A DNA stretch of 43,290 nt. It comes from Phycisphaerae bacterium. Lineage in GTDB: Bacteria > Planctomycetota > Phycisphaerae > UBA1845. Positions 10,526-35,686 of this stretch are shown piece after piece (position 1 is the stretch's first letter; every line of letters begins with the position of its first letter). Under the pieces are notes generated by a model. That model ran no database searches, had not been told where the DNA came from, and worked only from the letters and a program-made list of their open reading frames with translations. Where the stretch lies: contig JAJDDR010000111.1 in assembly GCA_029260255.1 (NCBI GenBank), forward strand, positions 1 through 43,290. The letters run 5' to 3'. The position numbers were made by a program, and so were the translations under genes.

Positions 10526-10753
10526 CGCTGCGGCCCCGAAACGCCGGTCCGATAGTCTCGAGCCACGCGTCGTTGGCGGGGCGTCCTAAAGGAATCGCTC
10601 GCCGAAACCGACGATGTAGGCGTGCGCACGGCGAACGGTGGGCAGCCGCGATTCGTTTGCTTCGCCCTCGGTGTGCGCTTTGGCGAGTTGCCGAAACCGA
10701 AACGCAGGAGTGATGGCGTGAGCGGACCCCGCAGCCTCGATTCTCTCCACAAG

Positions 10754-11233
10754 ATGCCCCACCGCGACGGCAGTGCCTCCGAGTCGTCCGACGAATTCGA
10801 GGCGGCGCTCGATTCACTGTTGTCGGTTCAGAAGGATGCCGCGGAGGCTGGCGACGCGACGCGGGACGCCGAACTCCAGCAATCGCCCCTCGATCGCCTG
10901 CGGGCGATATTCAGCGAAGATCTCGTTCCGCTGGTCTGCTCCATGGGGCAACGGTACGCAAGCAAGGGCGTCTGCGTTCACATGGACGCCTCGGATTTCC
11001 TCGCCGGCGGCCGCGGATTGCAGATCGAGATCCGGTTTCGTGACAATCGTCTGTGTCTGGACGGGACGGTCATGCCCGACTCCATCGCGTTTCACGAGAC
11101 GCGATTCACGAGCGACCTCGGCGGGACCGTGGTCGGTGGTCCGATGCTGCGTGCACGACACCTCACCAAGAAGGCGTTCGCCGATTTCCTTTACGATCGC
11201 ATTATCAAGCTCGTAAAATCGGTCAGCCGCTGA
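10754..11233 (+). CDS. Hypothetical cytoplasmic protein
   Basis: ORF with natural-looking composition (acidic N-terminus, alpha/beta C-terminus) filling the gap between neighbours; start taken at ATG 10754. Confidence 0.7.
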   Translation: MPHRDGSASESSDEFEAALDSLLSVQKDAAEAGDATRDAELQQSPLDRLRAIFSEDLVPLVCSMGQRYASKGVCVHMDASDFLAGGRGLQIEIRFRDNRLCLDGTVMPDSIAFHETRFTSDLGGTVVGGPMLRARHLTKKAFADFLYDRIIKLVKSVSR

Positions 11234-11260: not shown

Positions 11261-12139
11261 TCAGCCGCGCTCGCCGTAGTCGATTTGCGTCTTGGGCACA
11301 TCGTCCACCGCATTGTTCTTGCGGTGCTCTTCCATGCCGGGCGGCTCGGAAAACGCCTTCTCGGAATCCAGGGGCGGCTCATTGGAGTCGCACAACTGCC
11401 TGAAATACGGAGCGAGTTGGTCGTACGTCGCCAGGCGCGACGGTTTGTCCAGCCGCGACCACAGGCGCGCCTTGTGCATGATGTTGATGTCCGGTTTCTG
11501 CAGGAACTGAACGATCGAATTGTCGCGCATGTTCTTGAGCGGCGCGAGGTGGCGGCGGGCGGTTTGCCCCGGTTCGATCTGCTTGTCCTGCATGTAGTAG
11601 GTCCAGCCCTGTCTGGCCCGCGCCATCGCCGCGATGCTCTGGTCCACTTCGCCGAGGCTGAGGTGTTTTAGCGATCGGTGGATCCACGAGCCGATGATCG
11701 CGTTGGCCCGCTTGTAGCTGTCGAACTCGCCTTTGAACTCGCTGAACACGAACGCATCGAGAGGTTGCCGGTACCGTTCCTGTACTTCGCCGGTGTCCTT
11801 GTCGGGATTGTACTTCCTCAGGTACGCGTAGTATTCGCGGGCCAGCGCGAGATTCTTCGGTCCGCCTTCGGTGTAGAGCTGGCGAACGCCGTCCTCCAGA
11901 TTCGTGACATGACCGGTGTGGTAGTTGGGTCCCGCGGTGCCCTCCACGAAGCTCGGATCGTCGCCGAACTGTTCCTTTCCCAGTCGCAGATACGTTTCGT
12001 GCATGTGCTCGATGAAACGCGAATCCGGCAGCAACTCGATATGAGATCGCTTGGGATCGTCAAAATCGGGCTCGAGGATCAGTTTGCCCCGCTTTATGGT
12101 AAACGCCAGCCCGAAGAATATGTATCGGACGGTGTTCAT
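11261..12139 (-). CDS. C-terminal part of an interrupted hypothetical helical protein (in frame with 12149-13240)
   Basis: Same frame as the upstream ORF, separated by one TAA plus three codons (HDS). Confidence 0.7.
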   Translation of the reverse strand: MNTVRYIFFGLAFTIKRGKLILEPDFDDPKRSHIELLPDSRFIEHMHETYLRLGKEQFGDDPSFVEGTAGPNYHTGHVTNLEDGVRQLYTEGGPKNLALAREYYAYLRKYNPDKDTGEVQERYRQPLDAFVFSEFKGEFDSYKRANAIIGSWIHRSLKHLSLGEVDQSIAAMARARQGWTYYMQDKQIEPGQTARRHLAPLKNMRDNSIVQFLQKPDINIMHKARLWSRLDKPSRLATYDQLAPYFRQLCDSNEPPLDSEKAFSEPPGMEEHRKNNAVDDVPKTQIDYGERG

Positions 12140-12148
12140 CGAGTCGTG

Positions 12149-13240
12149 TTAGTCGAGATCGTGCCGGCCGTTTGTGTCCATGTCACCGCGCGTGGACCAG
12201 TACAGCGAGTGCGAGTACGGAACGCGCCAGTCGAGGGGCCCGAACTGGTTCATGAGCTGGAGCATCCAGTCGGGATCCATGTTGTAGCGATCACGCAGGA
12301 CGCGCTTGCGCAGGCACGCGAGCACCCGATCGCGCGGTTCGACGTTCGCCTTGTCGGTCAAGTACTCGATCCGCGACTCATGAAGCGTACGGACGGTGTC
12401 TTCCTCGACGTTCTTGAGGAAGTCCGTCACCTGCAGATCCGAACGGAGGTTTCGGGCGGCGAATTCGAGGAGCGTTTCGTCGGCACTCAGTGCGACATCA
12501 CCCAGGCCTGCGGCAAACTGCGCAACCTCTCCGTCCGCGGCCAGCAAGTCGTCGAGGCGTTCCGGCGCGTCAGCCACTTGCGCGAAATGTTCTATGATCT
12601 CCGCGTCGTTGAGCACCACCGGAGGCGCGCCCAACACGCGCTCCATCTCGACCGCCAGCTCCTTCTTGTACGTCCAGTGGTAGTCGTCGAGAAAATCGCC
12701 GACCTTGTGCCAGAACATCCAGGCCAGCTCCAGGTACAGCCCGATGGACTTGTCATTGTAGCGCAGCCCCTCGTTTCGGATGAGGTCGATCCCCTTGCGA
12801 ACCCAGTACCATCGTCCCTGCGGCGTGTACTGCATCACGCTGATGTTGTACGCTTGGTTCCACGCGGCGTACTTCCAGACCGAGGGAAAACGCGGCGAGA
12901 GCTTGCAAATGATGCTCGATAGTTTGTTCAGTTCGTAGTACTTGTTATCTTCCTTCAATCGCTCCAGCCGGATGAAAAGAAAATCGATCGCCAACGCCCG
13001 AAAGGTTCCCATTTTGGTCAACAGCGCGATGTCGGCCGGTAGGCCCTGCGTTGACTCGGCGTCCAGCGTCAACTGGTGTTCGAGGCGCTGGCTGTCGATC
13101 GGGGACACCAGCACGCTCCCGAATCCAACACAGACCACCGCCACGATGACCGCGCCGATCTGCACCGTACGTTCGCTCCGTTTCGCCTGCTGGCGGCGGA
13201 GGAGGTATTCCGGGATGTCGTGTTGTGTGACCTGTGACAT
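12149..13240 (-). CDS. N-terminal part of a membrane-anchored TPR-like protein (PilG/Xap-like, ABC-associated); truncated by TAA
   Basis: N-terminal TM (IGAVIVAVVCVGFGSVLV); aromatic helical motifs GTFRALAIDFLFIR, PRFPSVWKYAAWNQAYNIS, LYLELAWMFWHK; directly downstream of the ABC permease. Confidence 0.75.
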   Translation of the reverse strand: MSQVTQHDIPEYLLRRQQAKRSERTVQIGAVIVAVVCVGFGSVLVSPIDSQRLEHQLTLDAESTQGLPADIALLTKMGTFRALAIDFLFIRLERLKEDNKYYELNKLSSIICKLSPRFPSVWKYAAWNQAYNISVMQYTPQGRWYWVRKGIDLIRNEGLRYNDKSIGLYLELAWMFWHKVGDFLDDYHWTYKKELAVEMERVLGAPPVVLNDAEIIEHFAQVADAPERLDDLLAADGEVAQFAAGLGDVALSADETLLEFAARNLRSDLQVTDFLKNVEEDTVRTLHESRIEYLTDKANVEPRDRVLACLRKRVLRDRYNMDPDWMLQLMNQFGPLDWRVPYSHSLYWSTRGDMDTNGRHDLD

Positions 13241-13278
13241 TGAACCCAAAGCGTATTACCCTCGCCCACCGTGAGCGA

Positions 13279-14661
13279 CTAGAAAGATGTCTCCGCGACC
13301 TCGCGACGCTGGAATAGAAAGCACGCCGCCAACCCCGTGCCGAGTGTGCCCAAGCCGAGCTTCCCGACCGCAGTCAGGACCCACATCAAGGTTACGTTTC
13401 GCCCGTTCACCAGCAGGCTCGTGCCGTCGTATTGCGAGAAGTTCGGGATGATGAAGAACGCAACTTTGTAAAGCAAACTTGCGGCCATCTTGAATGCCCA
13501 GTAGACGCCTTCGTCCTCGAAGTGGATCAGCGAGTCAGTCAGGAAGCCCGACATCGTCGCGAGTGCCAGGAAGGCGAAGGTGACCAGGCAGGCCACCGGA
13601 AACGAAAACACGCAGACCATCGCCAGGGCGAACGCCGCGAGCAGCATCAGCTTGCACATGATCATCGTCATCTGCCGCGCGAGGTTCCCGCCAAACGTAC
13701 CCACCGTAAACAGCACCTCGATGTCGCTCGGAGACGTGAAGCTGATCGTATTGCCGTACTGCGGCTCGCCCTCGAAAGGGTTGCGATTGTGCAGTTCCGC
13801 CCGGAGCGTTCGGTAGGGTGTGACCGCGTCGGCCGGAACGAACAGCGAATGGTATCGGTTGATCACGTCACGCCGCTGAAACTGATAGACCGGCGTTCCC
13901 AAGTCGGGATCGCCCACGTACCACTCGGCCCGCAGGATCTCGTCCATGGCGTAGGCCCACACCTCGGCCTTGTACCGGATCTGAATCGTGCGGTCGGCGG
14001 TGCGGTCACAGCGGATGTTCTCGAATTCGAAGACGCGTGCCTCCAGTGGAAACAGCGTGCGGTAACGTTGTGCCATCTCCGTCTTGAGGCGCGCCTTTTC
14101 CGTCTTGGGGTCGATCTTCTGGACGACGGCATCATACGCCCCGGTTTCGAGTTTCTCGTTGAATTGAGCCCCGGCTTGCTCGCTGAAATCGATCTCGATC
14201 ATCGAAACTGCGTGCCGCGCCGTGAGCACTTCGTCGCGGAGTCGAAGTTCATCGTACTCGTCGGCGGGTGTCCGGGTAGCCATCCACTTCGCAGTGCCGT
14301 AAATGGCGACGCCGGACCCGGCAAGCATGACGCCCGTCAGCGTGATGATGCCGACCCACTTTCCGACGACGAACTGCCAGCGGGGGATGGGCTTGGCCAT
14401 CAACGTCATGATCTGCCCGCCGACAATCTCCTGCGAGAGGGTGCGTGCCAGAAAAATCGTCAGCACGCTGAGGAAGAACTCGACTCCGCCGATCGAGAAC
14501 GACAGAAAAGCCTGAACGGCCGAACTGACCGAGTCCTCCCGCCGCAGCGTGAGAGGGAGCCCCACGACCAGAATGAGGATCAAGGCGATGAACACCAGGG
14601 CGATCTTCATACGCAGACTCTCGGCGATGGTGTGCCGCGCGATGGCACCAATTCTACGCAT
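13279..14661 (-). CDS. ABC-2 type transporter permease with large extracytoplasmic domain
   Basis: IARHTIAESLR N-terminus, LMAKPIPRWQFVVGKWVG motif, several TM helices, C-terminal FQRREV; overlaps the ATPase stop. Confidence 0.88.
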   Translation of the reverse strand: MRRIGAIARHTIAESLRMKIALVFIALILILVVGLPLTLRREDSVSSAVQAFLSFSIGGVEFFLSVLTIFLARTLSQEIVGGQIMTLMAKPIPRWQFVVGKWVGIITLTGVMLAGSGVAIYGTAKWMATRTPADEYDELRLRDEVLTARHAVSMIEIDFSEQAGAQFNEKLETGAYDAVVQKIDPKTEKARLKTEMAQRYRTLFPLEARVFEFENIRCDRTADRTIQIRYKAEVWAYAMDEILRAEWYVGDPDLGTPVYQFQRRDVINRYHSLFVPADAVTPYRTLRAELHNRNPFEGEPQYGNTISFTSPSDIEVLFTVGTFGGNLARQMTMIMCKLMLLAAFALAMVCVFSFPVACLVTFAFLALATMSGFLTDSLIHFEDEGVYWAFKMAASLLYKVAFFIIPNFSQYDGTSLLVNGRNVTLMWVLTAVGKLGLGTLGTGLAACFLFQRREVAETSF

Positions 14662-15856
14662 CGTCGCCGTCCTTCTTGTCCTTGATCAGTGCGTCGATGA
14701 CGCTGCGATCGGCCTCCGGCGCGGGCGGCGCTGCGGGTGGCACATCCGACGCCGCGGGAAGTTCCTCTTCCGCGTGCCGCGTCGAAGCGGCATCCACCCG
14801 TGTCAATTGCTCGATGATCTGCTTGGCGGGTTCGTCCGACGCCTTCCGGCGGATTTCAACCGGCGTGACGGGCATGACCGGAACCTCCCGGTCAGCGGCG
14901 GACACGAGCTGGTCGACGACGTTGACGGGCTTCGTCTCACCCAGGAAATCGGCAATCGCGCCGGCGCGGCGGGCGCCCGAACTCCTGGCGTTGGTCTGCT
15001 CGGCACGCTCGATCGTCTCCATGAAAAACTTCTCGAGGCGGTCCGAGGGGGCGCCAACGCTGAGTATCTTCTTCTGCCCCGATCGCTGCAGGAGGTTCCG
15101 CACCTCCTCGATTGTCTCCGAAGAGAGTTTCTCGGAGGTGATCTGCGTTCGGTCCTCGCGGCACAGCAAGTCCGTGATCGATCCGGTCGATCGTTCCCGC
15201 CCGCCATAGAGAATCGTGATGCGGTCGCAAACATCCTCGACATCCGCGAGCAGGTGGCTCGACAGCAGGATGGTCTTGCCCTTGCTCGCCAGTTCCCGAA
15301 TGACATCCTTGATCTGTCGAATCCCGATCGGATCCAGCCCCGCCGTGGGCTCATCGAGGATGAGAAACTCCGGATCGTTGATCAACGCCTGAGCGAGACC
15401 GATGCGCCGAGCCATGCCCTTGGAGTACTCGCCGATTCGACGCTTGGATTCGGCGGCGAGCCCCACCATATCGAGGAGCTTGTCGATGCGTTCGCGGCGT
15501 TGTTTCGAATGCTGTTGGAAGATGCGACCGTATAAGTCCAGCGTCTCCCGCGCATTGAGGAACCGATAGAGAAAGGACTCCTCCGGAAGGAAGCCGATCC
15601 GCGCTTTGACCGCGACGTCCGTCGGGGGGCGGCCGAACAAGGAAATGCGGCCGCGCGTCGGGTACAGGAGCCCGAGGAGCATCTTGATGGTCGTGCTCTT
15701 GCCCGACCCGTTGGGACCCAGCAGACCGAACACCTCGCCGCGGCGGACCTCCAGATTGAGGTCGTCGACGGCAACAACGCGGTCTCGCCGCCAGAAGTCC
15801 TTGAAAATCTTGGTCAAACCGGCGGTCTGGGCTACCGGGAATTCAGTCGGGTTCAT
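14654..15856 (-). CDS. ABC transporter ATP-binding protein (PilH-like) with long C-terminal extension
   Basis: Walker A GPNGSGKST, signature YSKGM, Walker B LILDEP, H-loop SSH. Confidence 0.95.
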   Translation of the reverse strand: MNPTEFPVAQTAGLTKIFKDFWRRDRVVAVDDLNLEVRRGEVFGLLGPNGSGKSTTIKMLLGLLYPTRGRISLFGRPPTDVAVKARIGFLPEESFLYRFLNARETLDLYGRIFQQHSKQRRERIDKLLDMVGLAAESKRRIGEYSKGMARRIGLAQALINDPEFLILDEPTAGLDPIGIRQIKDVIRELASKGKTILLSSHLLADVEDVCDRITILYGGRERSTGSITDLLCREDRTQITSEKLSSETIEEVRNLLQRSGQKKILSVGAPSDRLEKFFMETIERAEQTNARSSGARRAGAIADFLGETKPVNVVDQLVSAADREVPVMPVTPVEIRRKASDEPAKQIIEQLTRVDAASTRHAEEELPAASDVPPAAPPAPEADRSVIDALIKDKKDGDDA

Positions 15857-15926
15857 GATACGCCATTGGCCCTTGAGTGTACCTGTCGCGGCGCGCGCCC
15901 TATCGGCGTTCGTTTCGATCTCAGGG

Positions 15927-17219
15927 TTACCAGGGAACCGTCAACGGTCCACCCGGGTTTATTTGTTGCCACTGACGCGGCGATCCGTCTTCTATCTCTT
16001 TGAGGTACGCGTCACGCTCTTTCTTGTCGCGTTGCTTCGGATCGAGCCCCACCTTCAGGCGGAATTGCGAACCGGGTGGGCGATAGATCTTCGTAAGTCC
16101 GGGGCGGCTGAGAAAGACGCCTTTCGTGTCCTGCCACAGTCGTGTCATCAGAAGTTCGGGGTCGGTTCGATACTCGGCGAGAAGCCCGTTGTACTGCTCG
16201 GCGTCCGCGCGCATGCTCTGCACGACAGCGCTGTAGTGGCCCTTGGCGTTGCGCACCATCGTCCCGGCGGTGCCCGACGCCTCGAACTCGATGATGCGGC
16301 CGATCTCGGCGGTCAGGTTCCCGATCTCGGCGTCATCGCCATCGGCCTGCGCCGCCTCCAGAGCATCCAGTTTCGAGATCAACAACACGTGCGACGTGCC
16401 GGCAACCGCGTTGAGCATCTCGGTCGCCTGCTGCTCGGCGCTGCGAATCTTGGTTCGCTTGTTGTTCTCTTCGCGCGTCACGTTGGCGAATGTGAGCAAC
16501 GTTTGAATCGGCGGCGTCGATTTTTGGATCTCCACGGATTCCACGACGATCCCGGTGTCCAGCCCCGCGAGCCTCTTGTCCACCTCACGCTTCACCGCGG
16601 CGCGCAACTCCGACAGTCGCTTGACCGTGGCGTCTTCCGTGGTGTAGCCGCCCACCACGTCGATGGCCGCGTTTTCGAGCACCTTGGTGATGAGCTTCTC
16701 GGCGTGCTTCACGTCGGTGTCGGATACCAGCGAGACGTACTTGGTGAGGTCGTCGATCGCGTAGGTCACTTCCCAGAGTGCGTGAACGAATCCGTTGTCT
16801 CCAGTGAGCAACGCCCCGTCGCGCATGGGGTGCAGCCCCTTCCCTCCGCGGCGCAACTCGGCCAGCGGGATGCCCTGTTCGTTCTCCTTGAGGTCCATCC
16901 AGTGGCTGCGAATCGTGACCGTGCTGCTCTGCTTGACGGGGATCTTGACGACCTCGTCGATCGGAGCGGGAAACGCCCAGTTGAACCCGGCATCGCGTAT
17001 GCCACCAACCGGCTTGCCCAGCCGAAGCACGATGGCTTGCTCGTTCTGGTCGACGACGAAGGTGCCGGACGCCAGAAAAAGCATGACCAGCACCACCATG
17101 GCGAGCTTCAGAATCCTGAAGCTGGTGCTCAACGCTTCGGTAAGCGACTGGCCGGCGGAGTCCATCGGAACGCCGCCGGGGGCGGGCGTCGACGTTGGGT
17201 TTTGGGGGTCACTGCTCAT
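15927..17219 (-). CDS. SPFH-domain (HflK-like) membrane protein
   Basis: One N-terminal TM, then VDQNEQAIVLRLGK, GFNWAFPAPIDEVVKIP, LLTGDNG and a coiled-coil C-terminus. Start at MSSDPQ. Confidence 0.88.
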   Translation of the reverse strand: MSSDPQNPTSTPAPGGVPMDSAGQSLTEALSTSFRILKLAMVVLVMLFLASGTFVVDQNEQAIVLRLGKPVGGIRDAGFNWAFPAPIDEVVKIPVKQSSTVTIRSHWMDLKENEQGIPLAELRRGGKGLHPMRDGALLTGDNGFVHALWEVTYAIDDLTKYVSLVSDTDVKHAEKLITKVLENAAIDVVGGYTTEDATVKRLSELRAAVKREVDKRLAGLDTGIVVESVEIQKSTPPIQTLLTFANVTREENNKRTKIRSAEQQATEMLNAVAGTSHVLLISKLDALEAAQADGDDAEIGNLTAEIGRIIEFEASGTAGTMVRNAKGHYSAVVQSMRADAEQYNGLLAEYRTDPELLMTRLWQDTKGVFLSRPGLTKIYRPPGSQFRLKVGLDPKQRDKKERDAYLKEIEDGSPRQWQQINPGGPLTVPW

Positions 17220-17226
17220 GTACTTG

Positions 17227-18165
17227 TCACTTCCGCGATACCGCATCGATAACCGTCAGTTCATCATGGTTGGATGCACCGACCGCCGCGCCGTCAAGCT
17301 TGAACAGGTCGATGGGGGGATCGTTCTTGTCCAGAATCAGCGTCGTGTCATCCTGGAGGGACTCCCGAAATGCGCCGAGCTTGTCGAGGAAGATGCGCAG
17401 TTCGGGGTATTCCTCGAACTGCGCGTAAATCTCGCTGATCTTCTTCTGCCCTTCGTTGCGGATCTCGTCGGCCTTGCGTTGGGCGACGGACATGATGCGC
17501 ATCTCCGCGGCCCGGGCGGCCGCGACGATCTGAGCCGCTTGCGCGTTGCCCTCCGCCTCGTAGTTCTTGGCTTTGTTCTCTTCGTTTTTCTTCATGCTGT
17601 CGAAGATGGCCTTGGTGACCGATTCGGGCAGCGTGAGCTTGGTGATGCCGAAGTACTTCACGTCGACGCCGTATTGTTCGCGCCAAACGTCGCGCACCGG
17701 CTCGAGCATCTCGTGCTCCACTTCGCGCAGCTTGCGATTTTCCGGGTTCGTGGAGACGAAGTTCGAGAAATCGTATTGCCCGATGACGGCTTTCTTCTGG
17801 GATCGGATCGCGTTGCGCAGTTGCTTCTCGCCATCCTCTTCGCGCTCGAATCGCTTGTGGAACAGATACGGATCCTCGATCGTCCAGAACGTCGCCGTGG
17901 TGACGATCACGTTCTTGCTGTCGGCGGTGATCGTCTCCTCGGTTCGATCCTCCAGAACGCGGATGCGCGTATCGAACTTGACGACGCTCTGGATCGGCCA
18001 CGGCCATTTGAAGTACAGCCCGGCATCCTGAATGGTGTCGTCGGACTTCTCCCCGAAGGTCTTCTTGATGGCCACCTCGGTGAACCGGACCTGGAACGTG
18101 CACATGTAGAATCCGAGGATCAGGACAACGACGGCCGCTGCCGCCAGCGTGGGTAGATTTCGCAT
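17227..18165 (-). CDS. hflC: SPFH-domain HflC-like protein
   Basis: GLYFKWPWPIQSVVKFDTRIR, ITADSKNVIV, WTIEDP, EAEGNAQAAQI and YAQFEEYPEL motifs, HflC-type. Start at MRNLPT. Confidence 0.8.
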   Translation of the reverse strand: MRNLPTLAAAAVVVLILGFYMCTFQVRFTEVAIKKTFGEKSDDTIQDAGLYFKWPWPIQSVVKFDTRIRVLEDRTEETITADSKNVIVTTATFWTIEDPYLFHKRFEREEDGEKQLRNAIRSQKKAVIGQYDFSNFVSTNPENRKLREVEHEMLEPVRDVWREQYGVDVKYFGITKLTLPESVTKAIFDSMKKNEENKAKNYEAEGNAQAAQIVAAARAAEMRIMSVAQRKADEIRNEGQKKISEIYAQFEEYPELRIFLDKLGAFRESLQDDTTLILDKNDPPIDLFKLDGAAVGASNHDELTVIDAVSRK

Positions 18166-18191
18166 GGGTTCTTCCTCTGAGGCGTCACCGC

Positions 18192-20375
18192 TCAAGGCTG
18201 GTGGTCAGGCGCCGCCGGGTTGGACGTTTCGAGATCCAGCGTGGCGCGTTGTTTCGTTTCGTATTCAACGATCAGTTCACTGGGGTCGCCGGTGTAAATA
18301 AACTTGCGCACGCCGGGCAGCGCGTCACGCAACGTGGCGAGGTAGCGGCGCATCTTGAAGAGCTCCGGCGCGGCTACGTACGCGGCGACGTCGTTCTCAA
18401 ACGACCGCAGTTTGCTTTCGGCCGTCGTGACGGCCCGAGCGCGTTCGGCACGAGCCGTCAAGACCGTCACGGCCGCCAGCCCGCTGGTCGGTGCGATGCC
18501 CTTCGCCGGGTTTCCCAGCAACAGGTCATCGACGCGTTGGGCGGCTTCGGCTGCGCGATCGGCGGGTCCTTCGCCGTCGACCGCGTTCGCCGCGCGGTTC
18601 ATCTCACGGATGGCGGCGTCGAGTTCGTTCGCCCGCTCCAGGCTGCCGGTGGCAAACGTCAGGATGCGACTGTGCGCGCCCATGGCGTGTTCGATCGTCG
18701 CCTGCTTGCGGATTTCCGCGGCGATGACCGCTTGATAATTCGCGGCGACCTCGTCGCGTGACGGCGGGTGGGCGTGCAAACCCACCAGGGTGATGGCGAC
18801 GCCCAGGTGCATGTCGTCGCACCGCTGCTGCAAGCTGATCTTCATCTCCCGGCTGAACGCCGCGCGACCCTTGCCCATCAGATATGCCGCGTCGTGACCG
18901 GCGGCGTAATCGGACAGCTCCTGATAGGCGACCGTCTCGAGCACGCGCTCCGGTTCCCGATAGCCGTACAGATGATCGTGGAGATCGCTGATGTGATACT
19001 CGATTGTCGCTGAGACCATCAAGAGGCTCACGCCCACGTCCTCGGCTGACGGTCGCTCCTGCCCCGGCGACGGTACTACGGCAGGATGGCTTTCGATTTC
19101 CTGATTGGCTACGACCATGAGCATCCCGGATACCAGGTGGGTGTGCTCTTCCGTCCACAGCACGGCGTGCCCCATCTCGTGCTCTTCGACTTCGTCGGCC
19201 GAATGATCGTCGACGTGTTCGCGCCGCTTCCACAACTCCTCGTGCTTCGTTCCGACCGTCGTCATGTGCATGCGCTGAACACGGGCACGCACCACGCGGT
19301 CGATCGGCCACGGGTACTTGAGACCGAATCCCGGTCCCAGCGGCGTCGCGCTTGCCTGCTGGATCTTGCCGAATCGTTCGATGTAGGCCTGTTCGTCGAC
19401 GTCGACGATGACGATGCTGGACAGCAGAATCAACGCCACGACGGTCAGCGTGACCAGTGGAAACACCGAACGCTGCAAGAGCTTGTAAAACCACGTGCTG
19501 CTGACTTCAAACCCGAACTGGTAGTTGATCGTGTCCGCGATCGAACGAACGATGCCGCCCGGCTCGCCGAAAAGGGCCAACAAACGGCTGTCGAACGCCG
19601 GACGGATCTCGTCGTCGGTGCGACGCGGCCTATAGAACTCCAGAATGAAGTTCACCGTGAACTCGACGCCGAGCAGCAGCAACATGAACCGAACGACGTA
19701 CGCCGCCAGGGATTCGGCCCAAACCTGAGTCGTCTGGCTGCCCGCCATCGCCATCGACACCGCCAGCACAGTTGCGGTCAGGGCGCTGCCGATCAGGTAG
19801 CTGCCGCCTGCGCGCAGCAGGCGCCAGTTCGGCTGGCGAGACATCCCGATGACATAACGTGCGTACACGAAGCAAACGAACGCCGCCGCCGCCGCGAATA
19901 TCATCGCGATCAGAGGCTGCGGCGAACGGTGCCACCCCACGTCATCCAGTGGCCGACCAACAGGCCACGTCCACGCCAGGAACGTTCCACCCACGTGGTA
20001 GACGATGGTGAGGACCGTGAAAAACGGCAGGAGAAACCGGACCGTCCACGTCAACCTGCGGCGCTCGAGCAGGAGCGATTCATCGGAAGCGTCAAACAGA
20101 TTCGTCGACAAACCGGCGGTTTCCGCGCGCTTTAGTTGTTCGGTCTCCATGTCCTCAAGACGGCTTCGCCGGCGCTGCCTGAACACCAGGAAGAGGATGA
20201 GCCAGATGAGCACGCCACCGAGCAGGTGCCGCGCGACGGCAACCACCGCGTCGGACCGCGTCTCAGACCACAGCCCGACCGTCAGGACGACTCCAAAGAG
20301 AACAAGTTGGATCAACAGCCCGGTGAGACACGCCAGTTGGGCACGCCGGTCACGGGGAGGGGCGGCATCGCTCAT
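18192..20375 (-). CDS. Large SPFH-domain (HflK-like) protein with multi-TM N-terminal domain
   Basis: ~300-aa polytopic N-terminus, then EQAYIERFGK, LGPGFGLKYPWPIDRV, HAHPP and APELFKMRRYL SPFH/HflK features. Confidence 0.85.
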   Translation of the reverse strand: MSDAAPPRDRRAQLACLTGLLIQLVLFGVVLTVGLWSETRSDAVVAVARHLLGGVLIWLILFLVFRQRRRSRLEDMETEQLKRAETAGLSTNLFDASDESLLLERRRLTWTVRFLLPFFTVLTIVYHVGGTFLAWTWPVGRPLDDVGWHRSPQPLIAMIFAAAAAFVCFVYARYVIGMSRQPNWRLLRAGGSYLIGSALTATVLAVSMAMAGSQTTQVWAESLAAYVVRFMLLLLGVEFTVNFILEFYRPRRTDDEIRPAFDSRLLALFGEPGGIVRSIADTINYQFGFEVSSTWFYKLLQRSVFPLVTLTVVALILLSSIVIVDVDEQAYIERFGKIQQASATPLGPGFGLKYPWPIDRVVRARVQRMHMTTVGTKHEELWKRREHVDDHSADEVEEHEMGHAVLWTEEHTHLVSGMLMVVANQEIESHPAVVPSPGQERPSAEDVGVSLLMVSATIEYHISDLHDHLYGYREPERVLETVAYQELSDYAAGHDAAYLMGKGRAAFSREMKISLQQRCDDMHLGVAITLVGLHAHPPSRDEVAANYQAVIAAEIRKQATIEHAMGAHSRILTFATGSLERANELDAAIREMNRAANAVDGEGPADRAAEAAQRVDDLLLGNPAKGIAPTSGLAAVTVLTARAERARAVTTAESKLRSFENDVAAYVAAPELFKMRRYLATLRDALPGVRKFIYTGDPSELIVEYETKQRATLDLETSNPAAPDHQP

Positions 20376-20483
20376 GGATTAGGTATCCGTTTCATCCGGC
20401 CCGCCGGCCGTCCGAACACTTTTTTTGCTCGCTGGTCCGCGAACCTCGCCGCGGGCCTGGACGTCTTACTCCTGGTGGGAAGC

Positions 20484-20511
20484 TTGCCCGAGGCGGCGCG
20501 AAGCCTACAAT
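20484..20511 (+). promoter_or_regulatory. Putative sigma70-type promoter for the divergent permease
   Basis: TTGCCC-16 bp-TACAAT in the AT-richer divergent intergenic region. Confidence 0.45.
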
Positions 20512-20591
20512 AAAAGAATACGCTTGCCAAGGGAGCCGGGTTCGCGGCAGGCGTTCTTAATCGATTCCTGGCAAGAGTTTGCGTTTCTTTC

Positions 20592-21560
20592 ATGTTCAGA
20601 CCGCTGCTCGGCATCGCCGGAAACACCTTCGTCGAAACGATTCGCCAGCCCATCTACGGCGTCTTGCTGGCAGTTACGGTGCTGCTGCTGATCCTCAATA
20701 TCTTCCTCGCCGGCTTCACGCTCGAGGACGACAACAAACTTCTCATGGACCTGGGCCTCTCTACGATGCTGCTGAGCGGTTTGTTCTTGGCCGCCTTCTC
20801 CGCGACCGGCGTTCTGACCCGAGAGATCGAGAACAAGACGGTACTCACCATCATCAGCAAGCCGATCAGCCGCCCTGTCTTCATCATCGGGAAGTACCTG
20901 GGGCTCATGGGTGCGCAAGGCGTGGCCTTCTACATCACGTTCCTCATCTTCATCCTGTGCATGCACCACCGCGTGTTGATGTACTCCACCGACCCGTTCG
21001 ACTGGCCGGCGATCATCTTCGGGGGCGGAACACTGACACTCGGGATATTCCTCGCCGCGGGCGCTAACTACTTCTATGGCAAGGAGTTCTCGTCGACGGC
21101 GATCGCGCTTGTGGTCCCGCTCCTCACCGTCGGGACGCTGATCACCGCGTTTTTCGACCGCGAATGGGAACCCGTCGATTTCACCCGCGCCTTTGCCGGG
21201 GGGCAACTCGTGATCGCGGCGCTGCTGCTTCTGATGGCCATCATGATCATCACGGCCGTCGCGCTGGCGGCTTCCACCCGCCTCGGACAGCTCATGACCC
21301 TGATGATCTGCATGGCGGTTCTGGTGGCGGGGTTCCTCTCCGACTCCGTGCTGGCGGACGTCAAGGACGATACCTTCGTGGGCGCCGTTGCCTATCGTGT
21401 CATTCCGAACATCAACTTCTTCTGGGTGGTCGACGCCATCACCGCCAGCATCGACGTCCCGGCCGGCTATCTGCTGTACACGTGTGGATACGCGATGCTC
21501 TTCGTCATCGCTTTCCTCGCCATCGGTGTCGCGCTCTTCCAGAGACGCGAGGTCGGCTAG
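20592..21560 (+). CDS. ABC-2 type transporter permease (PilI-like)
   Basis: IAGNTFVETIRQP, REIENKTVLTIISKPISRPVFIIGKYLG, several TM helices, C-terminal FQRREVG. Confidence 0.9.
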   Translation: MFRPLLGIAGNTFVETIRQPIYGVLLAVTVLLLILNIFLAGFTLEDDNKLLMDLGLSTMLLSGLFLAAFSATGVLTREIENKTVLTIISKPISRPVFIIGKYLGLMGAQGVAFYITFLIFILCMHHRVLMYSTDPFDWPAIIFGGGTLTLGIFLAAGANYFYGKEFSSTAIALVVPLLTVGTLITAFFDREWEPVDFTRAFAGGQLVIAALLLLMAIMIITAVALAASTRLGQLMTLMICMAVLVAGFLSDSVLADVKDDTFVGAVAYRVIPNINFFWVVDAITASIDVPAGYLLYTCGYAMLFVIAFLAIGVALFQRREVG

Positions 21561-22514: not shown

Positions 22515-24047
22515 TCACCCGCCCGACGCGGACGACGTCATTCTTGCCAACTCAGTCCACACGTAAGGTTGAACATAGTAGGCCGATATCCCGAGGCCGA
22601 CAACGCAAACGGCTATCAGCGTTTTTTTGATCCTGCGTATCGACCGCTCAAACCGCTCGACGCCGCCGGGGTCCGCCGCCAGGCTGTGAAGGAACGCAAT
22701 CCTGCTGGCAATCGACGAATGTCGCCAACTCGGCTCTTCCACCGGAATGCCATTGAGTAGCGCCACCCGATCCAGCGCGGCGGCGAAGATGCTCGCGCCG
22801 GTGGAACACAGCGCGTATGACGGGGCGGCTCTCTCGCCGGCGCCGGCATGCACGCCGCAAGGCACGGAACATCCGGCGTCACCTACAGCGGACACGCACC
22901 GCGCGCCGAACAGGTCCGCCTGACGCTCGAATCGTCTGGAAATAAACCCGAAACCGACCCCCCAAAGTGCGACGATGGCTACGAATCCGGCGCTTTGGAT
23001 GACCGCTTCGTTTAGAAACCGCGGTCCCGCAGCAGCCAGAGACCACCGGTAAAGAAGCTCCATCACGCCCGCCGCGATGAGCATGCTGGCCAACGCGAAC
23101 AACAGGAAAAACTGAATGTGCCGGTGCCGGATGTGCCCGGCTTCATGCCCAAAAACGGCCTCGATCTGCTTGTCATCCATAGACTCCAGGAGTCCGTCCG
23201 ACAGCATCACGAAACGGACCCGCGGAAAAAGCCCCATGACCGCCGCGTTCACCATCATCTGACCACTGCGCCACACGAGGATGTCCCGGCAACGGAGCCC
23301 GATCTTTCCGCACATGCGATCAAGCTCGTCACGCAGAATCCCGCCGGGAAGCGAATGGGTCGTCCAGATGCGCTTCAGAAACAGCGGGGCGACCACGAAC
23401 ACAGCCGCCGCCGAGATGCCCAGCCCGAAATCCGGCAGCCATGGAACCTGCATCGACGCAGGCATTCGGTCCTCGAGGTCACGGGCGATATCGTAGGCAA
23501 TCAAGATCATGGTCATGGGAACGACCACGACCAGCAGTTGGTGCCGAACGTTGAAATCCAGATACGACCTTAGTCCACCCGTCGCGGCTGTCTCCGTCGC
23601 ACACGGCGTGGCCGCGATGCCGGTGTGCAGCCTGAGCAGCCGATCAACAGGGTACGCCGCCACGAGCACCAGGACGCTGCCCACCAGGAACGGTAGGACG
23701 ATGATGATCTCCGCCATCGCCGGTACGATCGAAACCGGACGAAACGAGGCCACCATGTCCGGCCACCCGGTCAACGTGAGGTCGACCGCGAAGGTCGCCA
23801 GAACAATCCACCGGAGCATCAGGGTCGTGCGGTGATAGCGATGCTGCGCGTCCTCCAGACCCCGTGGCTGATCGCGAAGCACGCGAAGCGCGCGCGACGT
23901 TGCCACAGTGCTCAGGAGCCAAACCGCGGCCAGCTGCCCCAGCACGACCAGCCACACTCCCGCGGCAGACGTGACGATCGGGTCGATCGGGCGCTCGCGA
24001 GGCCACCATATCAGAATCGCGAATGCCATGACCACGTGTAAGTGCAT
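22515..24047 (-). CDS. M48-family (Ste24/HtpX-like) membrane zinc metalloprotease
   Basis: Multiple TMs; NAAVMG, HEAGH (HExxH), SRRFERQAD and HSSIASRI motifs. Confidence 0.9.
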   Translation of the reverse strand: MHLHVVMAFAILIWWPRERPIDPIVTSAAGVWLVVLGQLAAVWLLSTVATSRALRVLRDQPRGLEDAQHRYHRTTLMLRWIVLATFAVDLTLTGWPDMVASFRPVSIVPAMAEIIIVLPFLVGSVLVLVAAYPVDRLLRLHTGIAATPCATETAATGGLRSYLDFNVRHQLLVVVVPMTMILIAYDIARDLEDRMPASMQVPWLPDFGLGISAAAVFVVAPLFLKRIWTTHSLPGGILRDELDRMCGKIGLRCRDILVWRSGQMMVNAAVMGLFPRVRFVMLSDGLLESMDDKQIEAVFGHEAGHIRHRHIQFFLLFALASMLIAAGVMELLYRWSLAAAGPRFLNEAVIQSAGFVAIVALWGVGFGFISRRFERQADLFGARCVSAVGDAGCSVPCGVHAGAGERAAPSYALCSTGASIFAAALDRVALLNGIPVEEPSWRHSSIASRIAFLHSLAADPGGVERFERSIRRIKKTLIAVCVVGLGISAYYVQPYVWTELARMTSSASGG

Positions 24048-31853: not shown

Positions 31854-33566
31854 TTACGCCGTAGTCGCCGCGACCGCAAGCTGATTCGTTTCGCGGAACG
31901 TCGGAGGTTCGTAGGTCACGCCCTCGCGGAGGAGGCGGTCTTCGCGGGCCATGGTGAAACGCAGGTAACGGCCGATGAGCGACGCCGCCAGCCGCGATTT
32001 CAGTCCGAACTCGCGGTAGATGTCCTTCAGGATCCGCGAAATCTTCGCCGACATCGCGGCGTCGTCGCGGTACCAGCGCCGGGCCGCCCAGAGGGCGCCG
32101 GCGTACATGGTCGACAGACCACGCGTGTCCCAGGCGTACCGCTCGCGAATCCGCCGGTCGGGATGATCCTTGTAGCGTTGCCAGCCGCGGAGCATCGTCC
32201 GCGTCATCCGAACGACGCTGGGACCGTTGACCTCGAAGTCACGCCGAAAGGCGCGCAGCAGAAGCTCGGTCTCCTCGCCGTTCTTGATGTGCGGGTGCCG
32301 GTAGTTGAAACGGTACTGCCCGTGGGTGTCCGCGTCACAGAATTCACTACGATCCAGCAAGGTGCCTTTGGCCTTGTGCTCGGCATGCAGCGGCGTGCCG
32401 GGGATGGGCGTGTAGAGCATGAACTGGTGGAAGTCCGTATCGTGGCTCACGGCGTGGTCGATGGCCACATCGATGTTGTCGGGCGTGTGATCTTCCAGTC
32501 CGATGATGGTCGAGCCGAGCACGCGAATCCCGTGCGACTGGAGCGTGCGAACCAACTCGTGCGTATCGACGTTGCCGACCTTGGTGTATTGCGAGTCCTT
32601 GCCTTCGAGCCCCATCCAGATCCAAGAAACCCCCATGCCGACGAGTTGGTCCATGGAGTACGAGCGCAGCACGCCGGCCGAGCTGAAGACGTACAGCACC
32701 CAGGACTTGTCGTTCTCGATCATCAGGTCGAGCAGGCGCAGCGCCCGCTTGCGGTGCATGAGAAAGTTCTCGTCCATGACGAAGAACGACCGCACCTGCA
32801 GGTCTCTCTCCAGGTCGCACATGACGTCGAACAACTCGTCGCCGGTCTCGTAGAAGTGAAAGCAACTGCCTTTGCCGCCGAACATCGCGGAGGTCGAGCA
32901 GAAGTTGCAGCTCATCGGGCAGCCCACCGAGGGAATCAACGCCGCGGCGACTTCGCCCGGCTTTTCCGACTGGTTCACACCCATGATGCGCGAGCCGATG
33001 CCGGATCGGATTCGCGGATGCTCGATCGGGCGGTCTACGTCTTCGCCCAGGAACCGGCGCATCCAGCGCACGCCCTCGCCTTTGACAATGTGGTCGGCGT
33101 CGATCCGTTCGTCCAGGTCGGGCATGTTCGCCACGTGCCCGCCGATGACGATCGTGGCGCTGGGTTGGTGCTCGCGGATGAGCTCGCACATCTTCCGCAC
33201 CTTTTCGACGTTCGGGATGATCGCGCCGATCCCGACAATGTCGTACTCATTCGCCGTGATCTCGGCGACGAAACGTTCCATGTCGGGAAAATCCAGAACC
33301 GCGCACGGGGCGGCGATGTTCGCCTGGATCAGCATCAGCCCCCAGGAGCGGTGGAACATCCGCAACGAGAATACCCCCTGTACCCGCGTCACCTGGTTGT
33401 GGTACAGCTCCATGGGGTTGAGCTTCCGGCTGCCGTATTCGTCGTCCTGGGCATACGGTCCGAACACGCTGGTCAGCAGAACCCGGGCGCGCGATCCCAG
33501 CGGATGCGTGGGTTGCGTCGGGGCACTGAGGAAGCTCGTCGGGGTGATTGTCGCAGTCGCCGTCAT
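31854..33566 (-). CDS. B12-binding-domain radical SAM protein
   Basis: CPMSCNFC (CxxxCxxC), N-terminal cobalamin-binding-like fold (DIVGIG, IVIGGH), DENF and TPIPGTPL. Confidence 0.9.
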   Translation of the reverse strand: MTATATITPTSFLSAPTQPTHPLGSRARVLLTSVFGPYAQDDEYGSRKLNPMELYHNQVTRVQGVFSLRMFHRSWGLMLIQANIAAPCAVLDFPDMERFVAEITANEYDIVGIGAIIPNVEKVRKMCELIREHQPSATIVIGGHVANMPDLDERIDADHIVKGEGVRWMRRFLGEDVDRPIEHPRIRSGIGSRIMGVNQSEKPGEVAAALIPSVGCPMSCNFCSTSAMFGGKGSCFHFYETGDELFDVMCDLERDLQVRSFFVMDENFLMHRKRALRLLDLMIENDKSWVLYVFSSAGVLRSYSMDQLVGMGVSWIWMGLEGKDSQYTKVGNVDTHELVRTLQSHGIRVLGSTIIGLEDHTPDNIDVAIDHAVSHDTDFHQFMLYTPIPGTPLHAEHKAKGTLLDRSEFCDADTHGQYRFNYRHPHIKNGEETELLLRAFRRDFEVNGPSVVRMTRTMLRGWQRYKDHPDRRIRERYAWDTRGLSTMYAGALWAARRWYRDDAAMSAKISRILKDIYREFGLKSRLAASLIGRYLRFTMAREDRLLREGVTYEPPTFRETNQLAVAATTA

Positions 33567-33582
33567 GCGGTTGGTACCTTTC

Positions 33583-35478
33583 TCAAATCGTCGCGGGCGA
33601 GGCGCCCACGGCGGATTCTGCGGAGTGCTTGCGTGGCGCTCCCGGGGATCGAACGTTCATTTGAACGAACTCCGCCCGCGGCGTCCCCGGCAGCGCGTGG
33701 CTGGACCGCGCTCCATCCACGCCGCGCATCGGGATGCGGCTGCTGGGCGCCGCCGTCTTGTGGCGGATGTTCCCGCGCATCAGGCGGATCGTCCACCCCC
33801 ATGTTCGTCGGATCGTCTGCCCCAGTCCCCACATCCCAATCATCTGCATGCCGAGTTCTTTGAAATACAGGCGGTTTTTGGGACGGGCCAATACGACCAA
33901 GAAGCGGAGCGGATTGTAGAAATAGATGTACGCAGCCATGATGTTGAGCTGTTTCTTCCAGGGCTGCTTGTGCCCGGAGGCGATGACGTAGTTCGCGTCG
34001 AGCATGTGCGGCTCGACGCGCCGGCCGGCAACGCTCTCGTACACCAGCCCCGACGCAAACGTCTCAGCGTACAGCTTCGACCCGGTTGCGGGTGTCATCA
34101 TCAGGACCTGCAGGCTGATTGCCCCAGCCTTCCGCAGCAGCCGAACCTGGTTGAGGAGCCCGTAGGGCTTCGGACCCCGCGAAACCAACGGCTGCGCGTC
34201 GTGGTGCATCATCATCGGCATCGGACTGATGCCGTGCTGCCGAAGCATACCGAAGGCTTCCGTCGTCTTGTCCACGCTCTGGCCCTTCTTGACGAGCGTC
34301 GCGGTTACGTCTTCAACGCCCAACCAGAGGCCGCGGACGCCCGCACGGTGAATCACACGCAAATGGTCTTTCATGACCAGAGTATCGTGTACAGTGGCCT
34401 CGGTGCCCCAGCGGATTCGCTTGCGCAACGGGACGCCGTCGATCTCGGTACGGGCCAGTGTTTCCACGATATCGAGTGTACGCCGCCGGTTGTTGAAGAA
34501 GTTGTCGTCCGCCCCGAAGAAGTAACGCAGACCGTACGCGCGCCCGAGCTCGCCCATCTCCGTGGCGATGCGTTCCCCGCTTTTGGCGCGGTATTGCCGC
34601 TGGTTGTAGGCGGGGATCGGACAGTAGGGGCAGGCGAACTTGCAGCCCAGCGTCAGGACAAGCGACGCGATCGGGCTGTGTCGGCGGATCTGGCTCGCGG
34701 GCAGCGCCTTCGGACCCAACGTGGCAGTCCGGCTCGGCGGTTCGAGCGTTTGATAGCCGAGCGTCGGGTGGGGTAGCTCGTCGAGATCACCCAGAAGACG
34801 TTGGATACCGGTGTCGACCAACTCCTCCACCACTCCCTCGCGATCGGTTCGTGCGTAGACCAAACCCGGGATGTCGTCGAGCAGGCCGCTGTCGCGGACC
34901 CGAACGAACGCCGATCGTAGCGACTCGTCGCGCGCCCGATTCGACAGCACGACCTCCAGCAGGCTCAGCAGGATGTATTCCTCGCCGGTGACGGCGACAT
35001 CCGCGCCCCACGGGTCGAGCGGGTCGACGCTGAAGACGTCCCACGGTTCGTAGATCGTCTTCGGCCCGCCGGCGATAATCAGCGGACGGCGGGCCGGATC
35101 GATCCGGCACGCGTCGCGGATCAGTGCCTCGCACTCAGCCGAGTGAATCTGCATGCTCGAAACCATGAACACGTCCGGGATGCGTCCCTCCAGACGCATC
35201 TGCGACGGGCGGAAGTTCCGATTCCACTGCTGGAGCACGATGCGGGTCTTGGCGAACCCGCAGTCGAGCATCGCCGACCCGATGGCCCGCACGCCGGCCG
35301 GTGCCATGCGGTTGTCCGCATAGATGAACGGCAGCATCCGCGTGCGATGGTCGAACGCGCACGCAATCACCGTGGTCAGGTCATGTTTCCGGGCAACGTT
35401 CCGCAAGCGCCGCCGCAGGCCGAGCAACTCGCCCGGTCTCAGCAACTCATCACCTCGGTCACGACGAGGAAGTTCCAT
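33583..35478 (-). CDS. Radical SAM protein with B12-binding-like N-terminal domain
   Basis: CKFACPYC (CxxxCxxC), LIIAGGP, GEEY, ADDNFF, WGTEA and TPATGS. Start at MELPRR. Confidence 0.88.
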   Translation of the reverse strand: MELPRRDRGDELLRPGELLGLRRRLRNVARKHDLTTVIACAFDHRTRMLPFIYADNRMAPAGVRAIGSAMLDCGFAKTRIVLQQWNRNFRPSQMRLEGRIPDVFMVSSMQIHSAECEALIRDACRIDPARRPLIIAGGPKTIYEPWDVFSVDPLDPWGADVAVTGEEYILLSLLEVVLSNRARDESLRSAFVRVRDSGLLDDIPGLVYARTDREGVVEELVDTGIQRLLGDLDELPHPTLGYQTLEPPSRTATLGPKALPASQIRRHSPIASLVLTLGCKFACPYCPIPAYNQRQYRAKSGERIATEMGELGRAYGLRYFFGADDNFFNNRRRTLDIVETLARTEIDGVPLRKRIRWGTEATVHDTLVMKDHLRVIHRAGVRGLWLGVEDVTATLVKKGQSVDKTTEAFGMLRQHGISPMPMMMHHDAQPLVSRGPKPYGLLNQVRLLRKAGAISLQVLMMTPATGSKLYAETFASGLVYESVAGRRVEPHMLDANYVIASGHKQPWKKQLNIMAAYIYFYNPLRFLVVLARPKNRLYFKELGMQMIGMWGLGQTIRRTWGWTIRLMRGNIRHKTAAPSSRIPMRGVDGARSSHALPGTPRAEFVQMNVRSPGAPRKHSAESAVGASPATI

Positions 35479-35686
35479 GGTCAAATCGCTCCAGCCGACA
35501 AACCCAGCCCGGGAGTCTATCGCATTTCCGCACGCGACGCACCTGCCGTCGTCCACCCCGGCGGGATGGCGGCAAAAAAAATGCGCCCGAAGCCTCCCAC
35601 CACCCGATTCCAGGCAACGGCACACCATACACGTGCATCGGCGACGATCCCCCGCAATGTTCCGTTGAAGTATCAGTCGCCAAGTG

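Follow-up and report, generated by a model that had tools for sequence, protein, structure and literature searches.

What does a bacterial SPFH assembly serve when its three genes are followed by those of an ABC system? The question is raised by a locus on contig JAJDDR010000111.1 of a Phycisphaerae bacterium (assembly GCA_029260255.1), of which the whole stretch of 43,290 nucleotides, here called the window, was analysed. The locus comprises three SPFH genes, denoted P, C and K (the trio), as well as the genes of an ABC-2-type ATPase (A), two permeases (m1 and m2) and a membrane-anchored protein (N), together denoted the ABC quartet. An earlier note on this DNA had taken the SPFH proteins for a cage that houses or regulates the ABC system rather than the protease FtsH, possibly in the service of pilin-like proteins. 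We find that the locus joins two separable modules, namely the SPFH trio with a P1B-type metal ATPase (the pump), and the ABC-2 quartet. The explanation we favour, and to which we give about an even chance, is an SPFH cage tied to the P1B metal pump, with the ABC-2 module recruited as an assembly or remodelling factor. The trio likely specifies a so far undescribed cage for metal transport and not a machine for pilin export. No description of the planctomycete cluster was found in the full-text literature, the search covering openly accessible papers, with subscription papers and bioRxiv supplements outside its scope.

The six co-oriented minus-strand genes and the divergent second permease reported in the earlier note are present as follows:

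18192..20375, minus strand: P, a 727-residue polytopic SPFH protein with seven hydrophobic segments (Band_7 E 2.1e-10), in a clade of its own (Shimodaira-Hasegawa-like approximate likelihood-ratio test, SH-aLRT, 98); domain order: six-helix CDF-like (cation diffusion facilitator) domain, cytoplasmic helical linker, HflK-type anchor helix, SPFH domain, coiled coil
19626..20354, minus strand: CDF-fold domain of P, approximately residues 8-250, by predicted structure and profile alignment
17227..18165, minus strand: C, an HflC-like SPFH protein (Band_7 E 3.3e-25; TIGR01932 110 bits, cut-off 134)
15927..17219, minus strand: K, an HflK-like SPFH protein (Band_7 E 8.4e-21; TIGR01933 111 bits, cut-off 159), in a clade of its own (SH-aLRT 95-97)
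14654..15856, minus strand: A, an ABC ATPase of the DrrA/GldA/NodI (ABC-2) type with a long C-terminal tail (ABC_tran E 6.3e-33)
13279..14661, minus strand: m1, an ABC-2-like permease (ABC2_membrane_2 E 4e-5) with a soluble insert of about 200 residues that is predicted from hydropathy to be periplasmic
11261..13249, minus strand: N, a membrane-anchored all-helical (alpha-solenoid-like) protein of about 660 residues, interrupted here by a TAA (open reading frames, relatives, model)
12149-12151, minus strand: in-frame TAA in N, from open reading frame (ORF) calling and comparison with relatives
20376..20591, no strand: divergent intergenic region between P and m2, with -10-like words common to relatives
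20592..21560, plus strand: m2, a second ABC-2-like permease (ABC2_membrane_5 E 4.5e-5), NosY/COG1277-like by database names (PF12679 and Joint Genome Institute names on homologues)

The ORF calls reach a TTG at 18195 for C and an ATG at 17246 for K; the ATGs at 18165 and 17219 were adopted as starts. With these, the junction gaps among the six minus-strand genes are 26, 7, 70, -8 and 29 base pairs, and the spacing suggests that the six genes are co-transcribed. No RNA data were found for the region.

Two separable modules

Locus counts are restricted to loci that extend 9 kb or more beyond P on its downstream side, comprising 29 of 35 loci from the same order, 48 of 80 loci from a GTDB set of close relatives that overlaps the order set, 10 of 12 loci from other orders and 27 of 37 loci from other classes. 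A full-length homologue of P is encoded in 38 of 40 related genomes of the order (a further genome has a weak SPFH match alone), in each of 18 genomes that represent other orders of the same class and, with a match at E <= 1e-25, in 65 of 301 genomes of the phylum. C, K, A, m1 and N are all present in each of the 29 order-level loci, m2 adjoins P in 27 of them, and the same gene order recurs in all 29 as well as in 46 of the 48 GTDB loci. A and m1 are found beside the trio in 46 of 48 GTDB loci, 10 of 10 loci from other orders and 16 of 27 loci from other classes. The gene arrangement is not due to chance. In line with the earlier note, SPFH and ABC genes are syntenic in relatives, both throughout Phycisphaerae and in several further classes.

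In distant loci, K and A are separated by approximately 2 kb that encode a P1B-type ATPase; elsewhere this pump is found beside m2. The eight genes remain together over several classes despite such rearrangement, with m2 being divergent, in line or terminal. The trio has a P1B ATPase as its neighbour in 23 of the 27 other-class loci and in 5 of the 10 loci from other orders. The source genome encodes the pump orthologue on another contig (C590, 3 kb; L190:341-2446), a heavy-metal P-type ATPase that scores 910 bits compared to 478 for the next paralogue. Orthologues are found in 35 of 40 genomes of the order (4 of them as partial matches), and all 5 genomes with a miss are less than 90% complete. 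The trio-linked pumps, including that of C590, form one clade (22 rows, SH-aLRT 99). Their catalytic motifs are intact, and transmembrane helix 8 mostly carries a histidine. In the family of the source genome, the relocated pump adjoins a gene for an FG-GAP-repeat protein of 1100-1300 residues in 8 of 20 loci retrieved (L235-L237, L240-L244; two checked by Pfam).

Both modules also occur alone. At least 12 loci have the trio but no ABC genes; trio and pump occur together without ABC genes in L166, L181, L182, L184, L185, L195 and L197-L199. The same holds for plasmids from Klebsiella aerogenes, Rhizobium tumorigenes and Burkholderia ubonensis; the P, C, K and pump proteins encoded there fall in the same clades as the planctomycete proteins. 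On the Klebsiella aerogenes plasmid (L206:5828-13172) the trio-pump unit comes after a DUF4198 gene, in L181 after an ArsP-type permease. Complete ABC quartets without SPFH genes are found in six loci (L211-L216). In the tree of the ATPase, the lineages that have the ABC genes alone branch within the trio-linked ones (support 92; subclades 96-97), and a joint loss of trio and pump is therefore suggested. Among 19 genomes chosen for a long m2 match together with no match to P, neither P nor the pump orthologue is found in 18, and one has both; the 18 genomes represent six families, and three show only a lone m2-like gene in the retrieved locus. These patterns do not support the ABC system as an obligatory partner of the trio: in other classes the pump (23 of 27 loci) is its steadier neighbour than the ABC genes (16 of 27), the trio goes with the P1B ATPase, often without ABC genes, and the quartet also occurs without the trio.

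A comparable gene set is known from Pseudomonas aeruginosa. The cluster PA2434-PA2439 is described as holding HflK-, HflC- and HflC-family genes together with the pump HmtA (PMC4542158), and paFlo5-7 as a three-SPFH operon of strain PA14 that is patchy in distribution and distinct from hflKC (PMC13086221). The paFlo5-7 operon of PA14 presumably corresponds to the hmtA locus of PAO1. The likeness consists of three SPFH genes (HflK-family, HflC, HflC-family) followed by a P1B ATPase (PMC4542158, PMC13086221), and is matched here by long HflK-type, HflC-type and HflK-type genes in a row plus a dedicated P1B ATPase (on C590). In contrast, the proteobacterial copies examined are without the ABC quartet, and the pump of the source genome is on another contig. 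According to the parts of these sources that were covered, PA2439-PA2435 rises 5.6-14-fold under Zn depletion (PMC4542158), the cluster also rises as protein under Zn depletion (PMC11761036), Zur binds the PA2439 promoter (PMC8531726), and HmtA is reviewed as a Cu/Zn importer (PMC8456098). The paFlo5-7 mutant shows mild phenotypes that are only subtle in rich media (PMC13086221). The passages covered of PMC4542158 and PMC13086221 draw no mechanistic link between the SPFH genes and HmtA, and the word 'ATPase' is absent from the main text, as covered, of the paFlo5-7 paper (PMC13086221) and from that of PMC2636767.

The CDF-like domain of P and a possible mechanism

The N-terminus of P is predicted to have the six-helix membrane fold of CDF transporters. 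The first 250 residues give weak Cation_efflux matches in 6 of 48 members (best E 7.5e-5), and alignment to the CDF profile has an hhalign probability of 74 (E 2.7e-5). An AlphaFold2 (AF2) model of the domain, with a predicted local distance difference test score (pLDDT) of 90.8, returns CDFs in all ten best rows of a Foldseek search (E 0.03-0.11). In VIA it aligns to SLC30A10 with Z 15.1 (root-mean-square deviation 3.3, 180 residues aligned) and to ZnT3 with Z 14.3, the best unrelated chain reaching 10.6. A profile of the domain matches proteobacterial P proteins as well as 4 of 10 CDF domains at E<0.01, and 0 of 3 control membrane proteins.

The likeness to CDF transporters (YiiP, ZnT1/3/4/8, SLC30A10) concerns this predicted six-helix fold. 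In contrast to them, P is fused to an SPFH protein, its model is without the alpha/beta cytoplasmic domain, and transport site A (H/D-x3-D in transmembrane helix 2, H-x3-D in transmembrane helix 5) is not kept, the corresponding residues being H50/G54 and Y193/S197. Histidine and aspartate are absent from the six commonest residues at positions 193 and 197 (48 sequences). Since the site-A aspartates are replaced, the CDF-fold domain of P is predicted to be non-transporting. P has three conserved periplasmic histidines (41, 46 and 48 of 52 sequences), and K has one (49 of 50). The region of P at approximately 19386-18900 encodes a His/acid-rich periplasmic insert, then an invariant W-x3-H motif and later H-P-P, which provide candidate metal-binding residues. 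A second trio lineage has its first SPFH gene fused to an intact CDF with complete site A (L200:3974-5731, Pfam E 3.8e-33; L202:5826-7580) or to a P1B ATPase (L186-L189, L194, L266). As this lineage is a separate branch, its CDF- and pump-SPFH fusions are parallel evidence from a gene different from P.

In the explanation we favour, P, C and K would oligomerise like HflK/HflC into a cage on the periplasmic face of the inner membrane, and the client of this cage would be the specific P1B-type metal ATPase that is encoded on another contig in the source genome. The transport-dead CDF-fold domain of P may dock the pump inside the cage or sense metal, aided by the conserved periplasmic histidines, and the pump would import Zn or Cu under scarcity, by analogy with HmtA of P. 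aeruginosa. Two copies of A would combine with m1 and m2 into an ABC-2 complex with two permeases; by moving N, this complex would serve in loading, assembling or releasing membrane complexes. An assembly role of the ABC module is suggested because the same module adjoins membrane pyrophosphatases and type IV filament genes elsewhere (see below), and also by NosDFY.

The far-reaching version of this explanation is one eight-protein inner-membrane machine, in which a three-subunit SPFH cage has acquired a dead CDF fold as adaptor and encloses a metal-importing P-type pump within a periplasmic compartment. The cage would be tended by A, m1, m2 and N as a widespread ABC-2 assembler of membrane complexes, which other bacteria would use for membrane pyrophosphatases and type IV filament machines. 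We consider this version possible and somewhat doubtful. If true, the client of this bacterial SPFH cage would be a transporter instead of a protease, and the ABC module would belong to a new class of ABC assembly factors. Among possible contents of bacterial SPFH assemblies apart from FtsH, the cluster names a testable client, the P1B pump. This client is backed by co-loss, shared clades, the CDF-derived adaptor domain and the parallel CDF- and pump-SPFH fusions.

Several points weigh against tying the cage to the pump. The pump lies beside the trio in just 5 of 29 order-level loci and in 0 of 48 GTDB loci, compared to 29 of 29 and 46 of 48 for the ABC genes; in the family of the source genome the ABC genes have remained at the locus and the pump has moved away. 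The co-loss counts come from related, non-independent genomes of six families with incomplete assemblies. Transmembrane helix 6 of the pump is variable (CPC, CPL, CPG, CPS; CPL in the source genome), and neither metal nor direction is readable from it. Across 32 regions upstream of P, no operator-like (Zur-type) palindrome is shared beyond GC-rich words, and in one study, as far as it was covered, hmtA mRNA is not repressed by added Zn (PMC8531726). The likeness to the HmtA locus consists of gene order and descriptions in papers, and sequence orthology covers the Klebsiella, Rhizobium and Burkholderia copies. As to the CDF fold, the Foldseek E-values are all >0.001, VIA Z scores of approximately 13-15 can occur for helical bundles, and the fused-trio lineage is a separate sister branch in the trees, its genes not being orthologues of P. 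The trio is also the sole HflK/C-type set found in the source genome and may serve FtsH as well. Finally, all protein contacts in the scheme are inferred, next to gene content, synteny, co-occurrence, clades and a CDF-like fold of P that come out of the analysis itself.

FtsH as an alternative client

The rival explanation that survives best, while still unlikely, is that the trio is this lineage's FtsH regulator: it would cage FtsH, and the CDF-like domain and the neighbouring genes would mark FtsH substrates or a stress regulon, with FtsH degrading the pump and the ABC subunits depending on metal status. All three SPFH proteins match Band_7, and their best NCBIfam models are hflK, hflC and hflK for P, C and K, respectively, in agreement with the HflK-HflC-HflK order first read from the sequence; the scores (69, 110 and 111 bits) are below the curated cut-offs (159, 134 and 159). 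Likewise, the E. coli HflK/HflC-FtsH cage (PDB 7vhp, 7wi3, 9cz1/9cz2, 9paw) provides the best solved sequence matches of the SPFH part of the trio, the shared features being K-type and C-type subunits with a single anchor helix, an SPFH domain and a coiled coil. No other HflK/C pair was found in the source genome, and in the part covered of PMC11761036, PA2437-2439 are interpreted as FtsH regulators.

The earlier note had also pointed to 'no FtsH'. Indeed, no FtsH (Peptidase_M41) is found in the locus or in the 92.9%-complete source assembly, the latter absence probably being an assembly gap. The absence at the locus carries no weight, however, because 37 of 40 relatives encode FtsH elsewhere and E. 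coli hflKC is likewise not adjacent to ftsH. FtsH is located on another contig than P in 35 of 35 relatives with both genes; this was considered as evidence against an FtsH partnership and rejected, as E. coli shows the same separation. An M48/HtpX-like membrane peptidase (22515-24047, minus strand) was considered as a substitute protease partner and rejected, with no homologue in the loci of 35 relatives.

What argues against an FtsH regulator is the distinctness of the trio. The canonical hflK-hflC layout has two genes for single-pass proteins; here there are three genes, and P has seven hydrophobic segments. In the trees, P, K and C each separate from canonical HflK/HflC into a clade that includes the proteobacterial copies (SH-aLRT 98 for P, 95-97 for K, 93 for C), in keeping with the earlier note. 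P and K are separate in both trees, C in the mixture tree, from which its support of 93 derives, C being unresolved in the first tree. These are quick trees of SPFH domains cut out by hidden Markov models, with SH-aLRT support only and at most 5 canonical-type pairs, and one of them left out 27 of 96 rows. The residues of E. coli HflK that contact FtsH are given as R141, E142 and R185 in the part covered of PMC13220708; at the aligned positions, in a region that has inserts, K has S/T/T and P has H/M/E. R185, which K and P lack in this alignment, is kept in 5 of 5 canonical-type HflK proteins, while R141 and E142 vary even there, which makes the comparison a weak one. P. aeruginosa keeps canonical hflKC besides paFlo5-7, with differing mutant phenotypes (PMC13086221, as covered), and the planctomycete genome G062 holds the trio together with a canonical-type pair. 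Compared to E. coli HflK/HflC, the trio has three subunits, one fused to a six-helix CDF fold, lies in separate clades, appears not to keep an FtsH-contact arginine and is linked to transporters.

The ABC quartet, pilins and neighbouring genes

The ATPase A has Walker A at residue 47, the signature YSKGM at 144, Walker B at 165 and an H-switch, and is encoded alongside ABC-2-type permeases. Its best NCBIfam models, drrA and GldA, are both below cut-off; the permease matches are weak and also below cut-off. The permeases m1 and m2 are homologous to each other. IAGNTFVE is found at the start of the divergent permease m2 and FRALAIDF at residue 83 of N, such that all three motif types behind the comparison to PilGHI and Xap (YSKGM, IAxNTFxE and the FRxLAxDxxW type) are in place in A, m2 and N. 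N itself has no Pfam or NCBIfam match, and a Pfam search with 23 members gives nothing beyond single weak matches. The AF2 model of a relative (pLDDT 83.7) is anchored and all-helical; its fold search gives no PDB match at E<=0.001, generic helical solenoids alone being returned. The best Atlas clusters are hypothetical proteins of Planctomycetota and Verrucomicrobiota, with TPR-like clusters only as leads. Relatives of N are found in 203 of 301 sampled Planctomycetota genomes. A homologue search with m2 gives only close relatives of the Planctomycetota-Verrucomicrobiota-Chlamydiota type among the best 120 of 1082 matches, and a search of plasmids with m2 gives no match. The ABC quartet is a phylum-wide orphan family.

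The model of the earlier note, in which the cage houses this ABC system as a PilGHI/Xap-like exporter or remodeller serving pilin-like proteins, has become rather improbable, although its likeness to pilus systems holds in part. The combination of ATPase, permease and anchored helical-repeat-like protein is present as in PilGHI/Xap-type sets, N being helical by its model. PilGHI, XapA-D, NosDFY and GldAFG (ABC-2/type V) share with the quartet an ABC-2 ATPase, one or more permeases and an accessory protein, and weak GldF- and NosY-like labels are found. Compared by composition and description, not by sequence, these systems differ from the source quartet, in which the two permeases are paralogous and one of them carries a large insert, the accessory protein has 660 residues, pilin linkage is lacking, and SPFH and pump genes are joined to the set. 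PilGHI is described as needed for pilin translocation in M. xanthus (PMC3724824, as covered). The family does have members in type IV filament loci: on a plasmid of Ca. Manganitrophus (L269:6242-20384), all four ABC homologues lie inside a locus with pilin, PilZ, secretin and PilM genes (ATPase 368 bits, compared to 267 for the next paralogue of the source genome; N 127, m1 90, m2 148), and one planctomycete genome (L272:1-14629) has a homologous quartet within a type IV filament locus. The ABC genes are always with the trio in the order (29 of 29 loci), and the nesting of ABC-only lineages inside the trio-linked clade makes the link look old.

However, the trio loci show no pilin linkage above background. 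Pilin motifs near the loci are not enriched (8 of 165 loci; 1.6-8.6 per Mb compared to 4.7 in the source genome), which counts against the proposed service to pilin-like proteins. The gene at 28562 is confirmed as pilin-like (N_methyl E 6.4e-5), but as a partner it was rejected from the loci of relatives and the background-level motifs. The filament-linked ATPases form a small clade nested in the same ATPase family (SH-aLRT 96), not sister to the source ATPase, and the separate occurrence of trio and quartet counts against this model as well. In a sample of 20 loci of a short paralogue, chosen for spread over families, A, m1 and N are together in 19 and SPFH genes are found in 0. A membrane H+/Na+ pyrophosphatase follows directly after N in 8 of the 20, in different families (L271, L276-L278, L284, L286, L287, L290), whereas a secretin-PilM cluster is the neighbour in 1. 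In 2 of the 20, ribF follows the ABC module (L273:10533-11462, L274:7626-8498), which may be chance; ribF also flanks myxobacterial pilus clusters (PMC6060248, as covered). The changing neighbours of the quartet hint at a general assembly role, as proposed in the explanation we favour, and might also explain PilGHI.

That two independent machines, an SPFH-pump unit and an ABC exporter of a small molecule or lipid, are co-located for co-regulation and without contact carries little probability. In its favour, each module occurs alone, synteny is broken in L121, L141, L166, L171, L173, L177 and L179, and a sugar ABC transporter is what XapD is described to be (PMC5585712, as covered). Against it, the eight genes are kept together over several classes through rearrangements and the gene junctions are tight.

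In relatives, N is a single ORF of about 660 residues, and the TAA of the source sequence occupies a single variable codon. The sequencing run that holds the region has contigs at 11794-12147 and from 12258 onwards (depth approximately 4-7). The TAA is possibly an assembly error, or else a recent nonsense change; the two are indistinguishable because it falls in the gap between these contigs. An unannotated gene of 203 residues (10622-11233, plus strand) converges on N and is kept there in 12 of 35 relatives' loci, all of the same family. Elsewhere in the window, 31854-35628 (minus strand) holds two neighbouring radical SAM genes, one of them B12-binding, with a formiminotransferase-cyclodeaminase and an amidohydrolase upstream.

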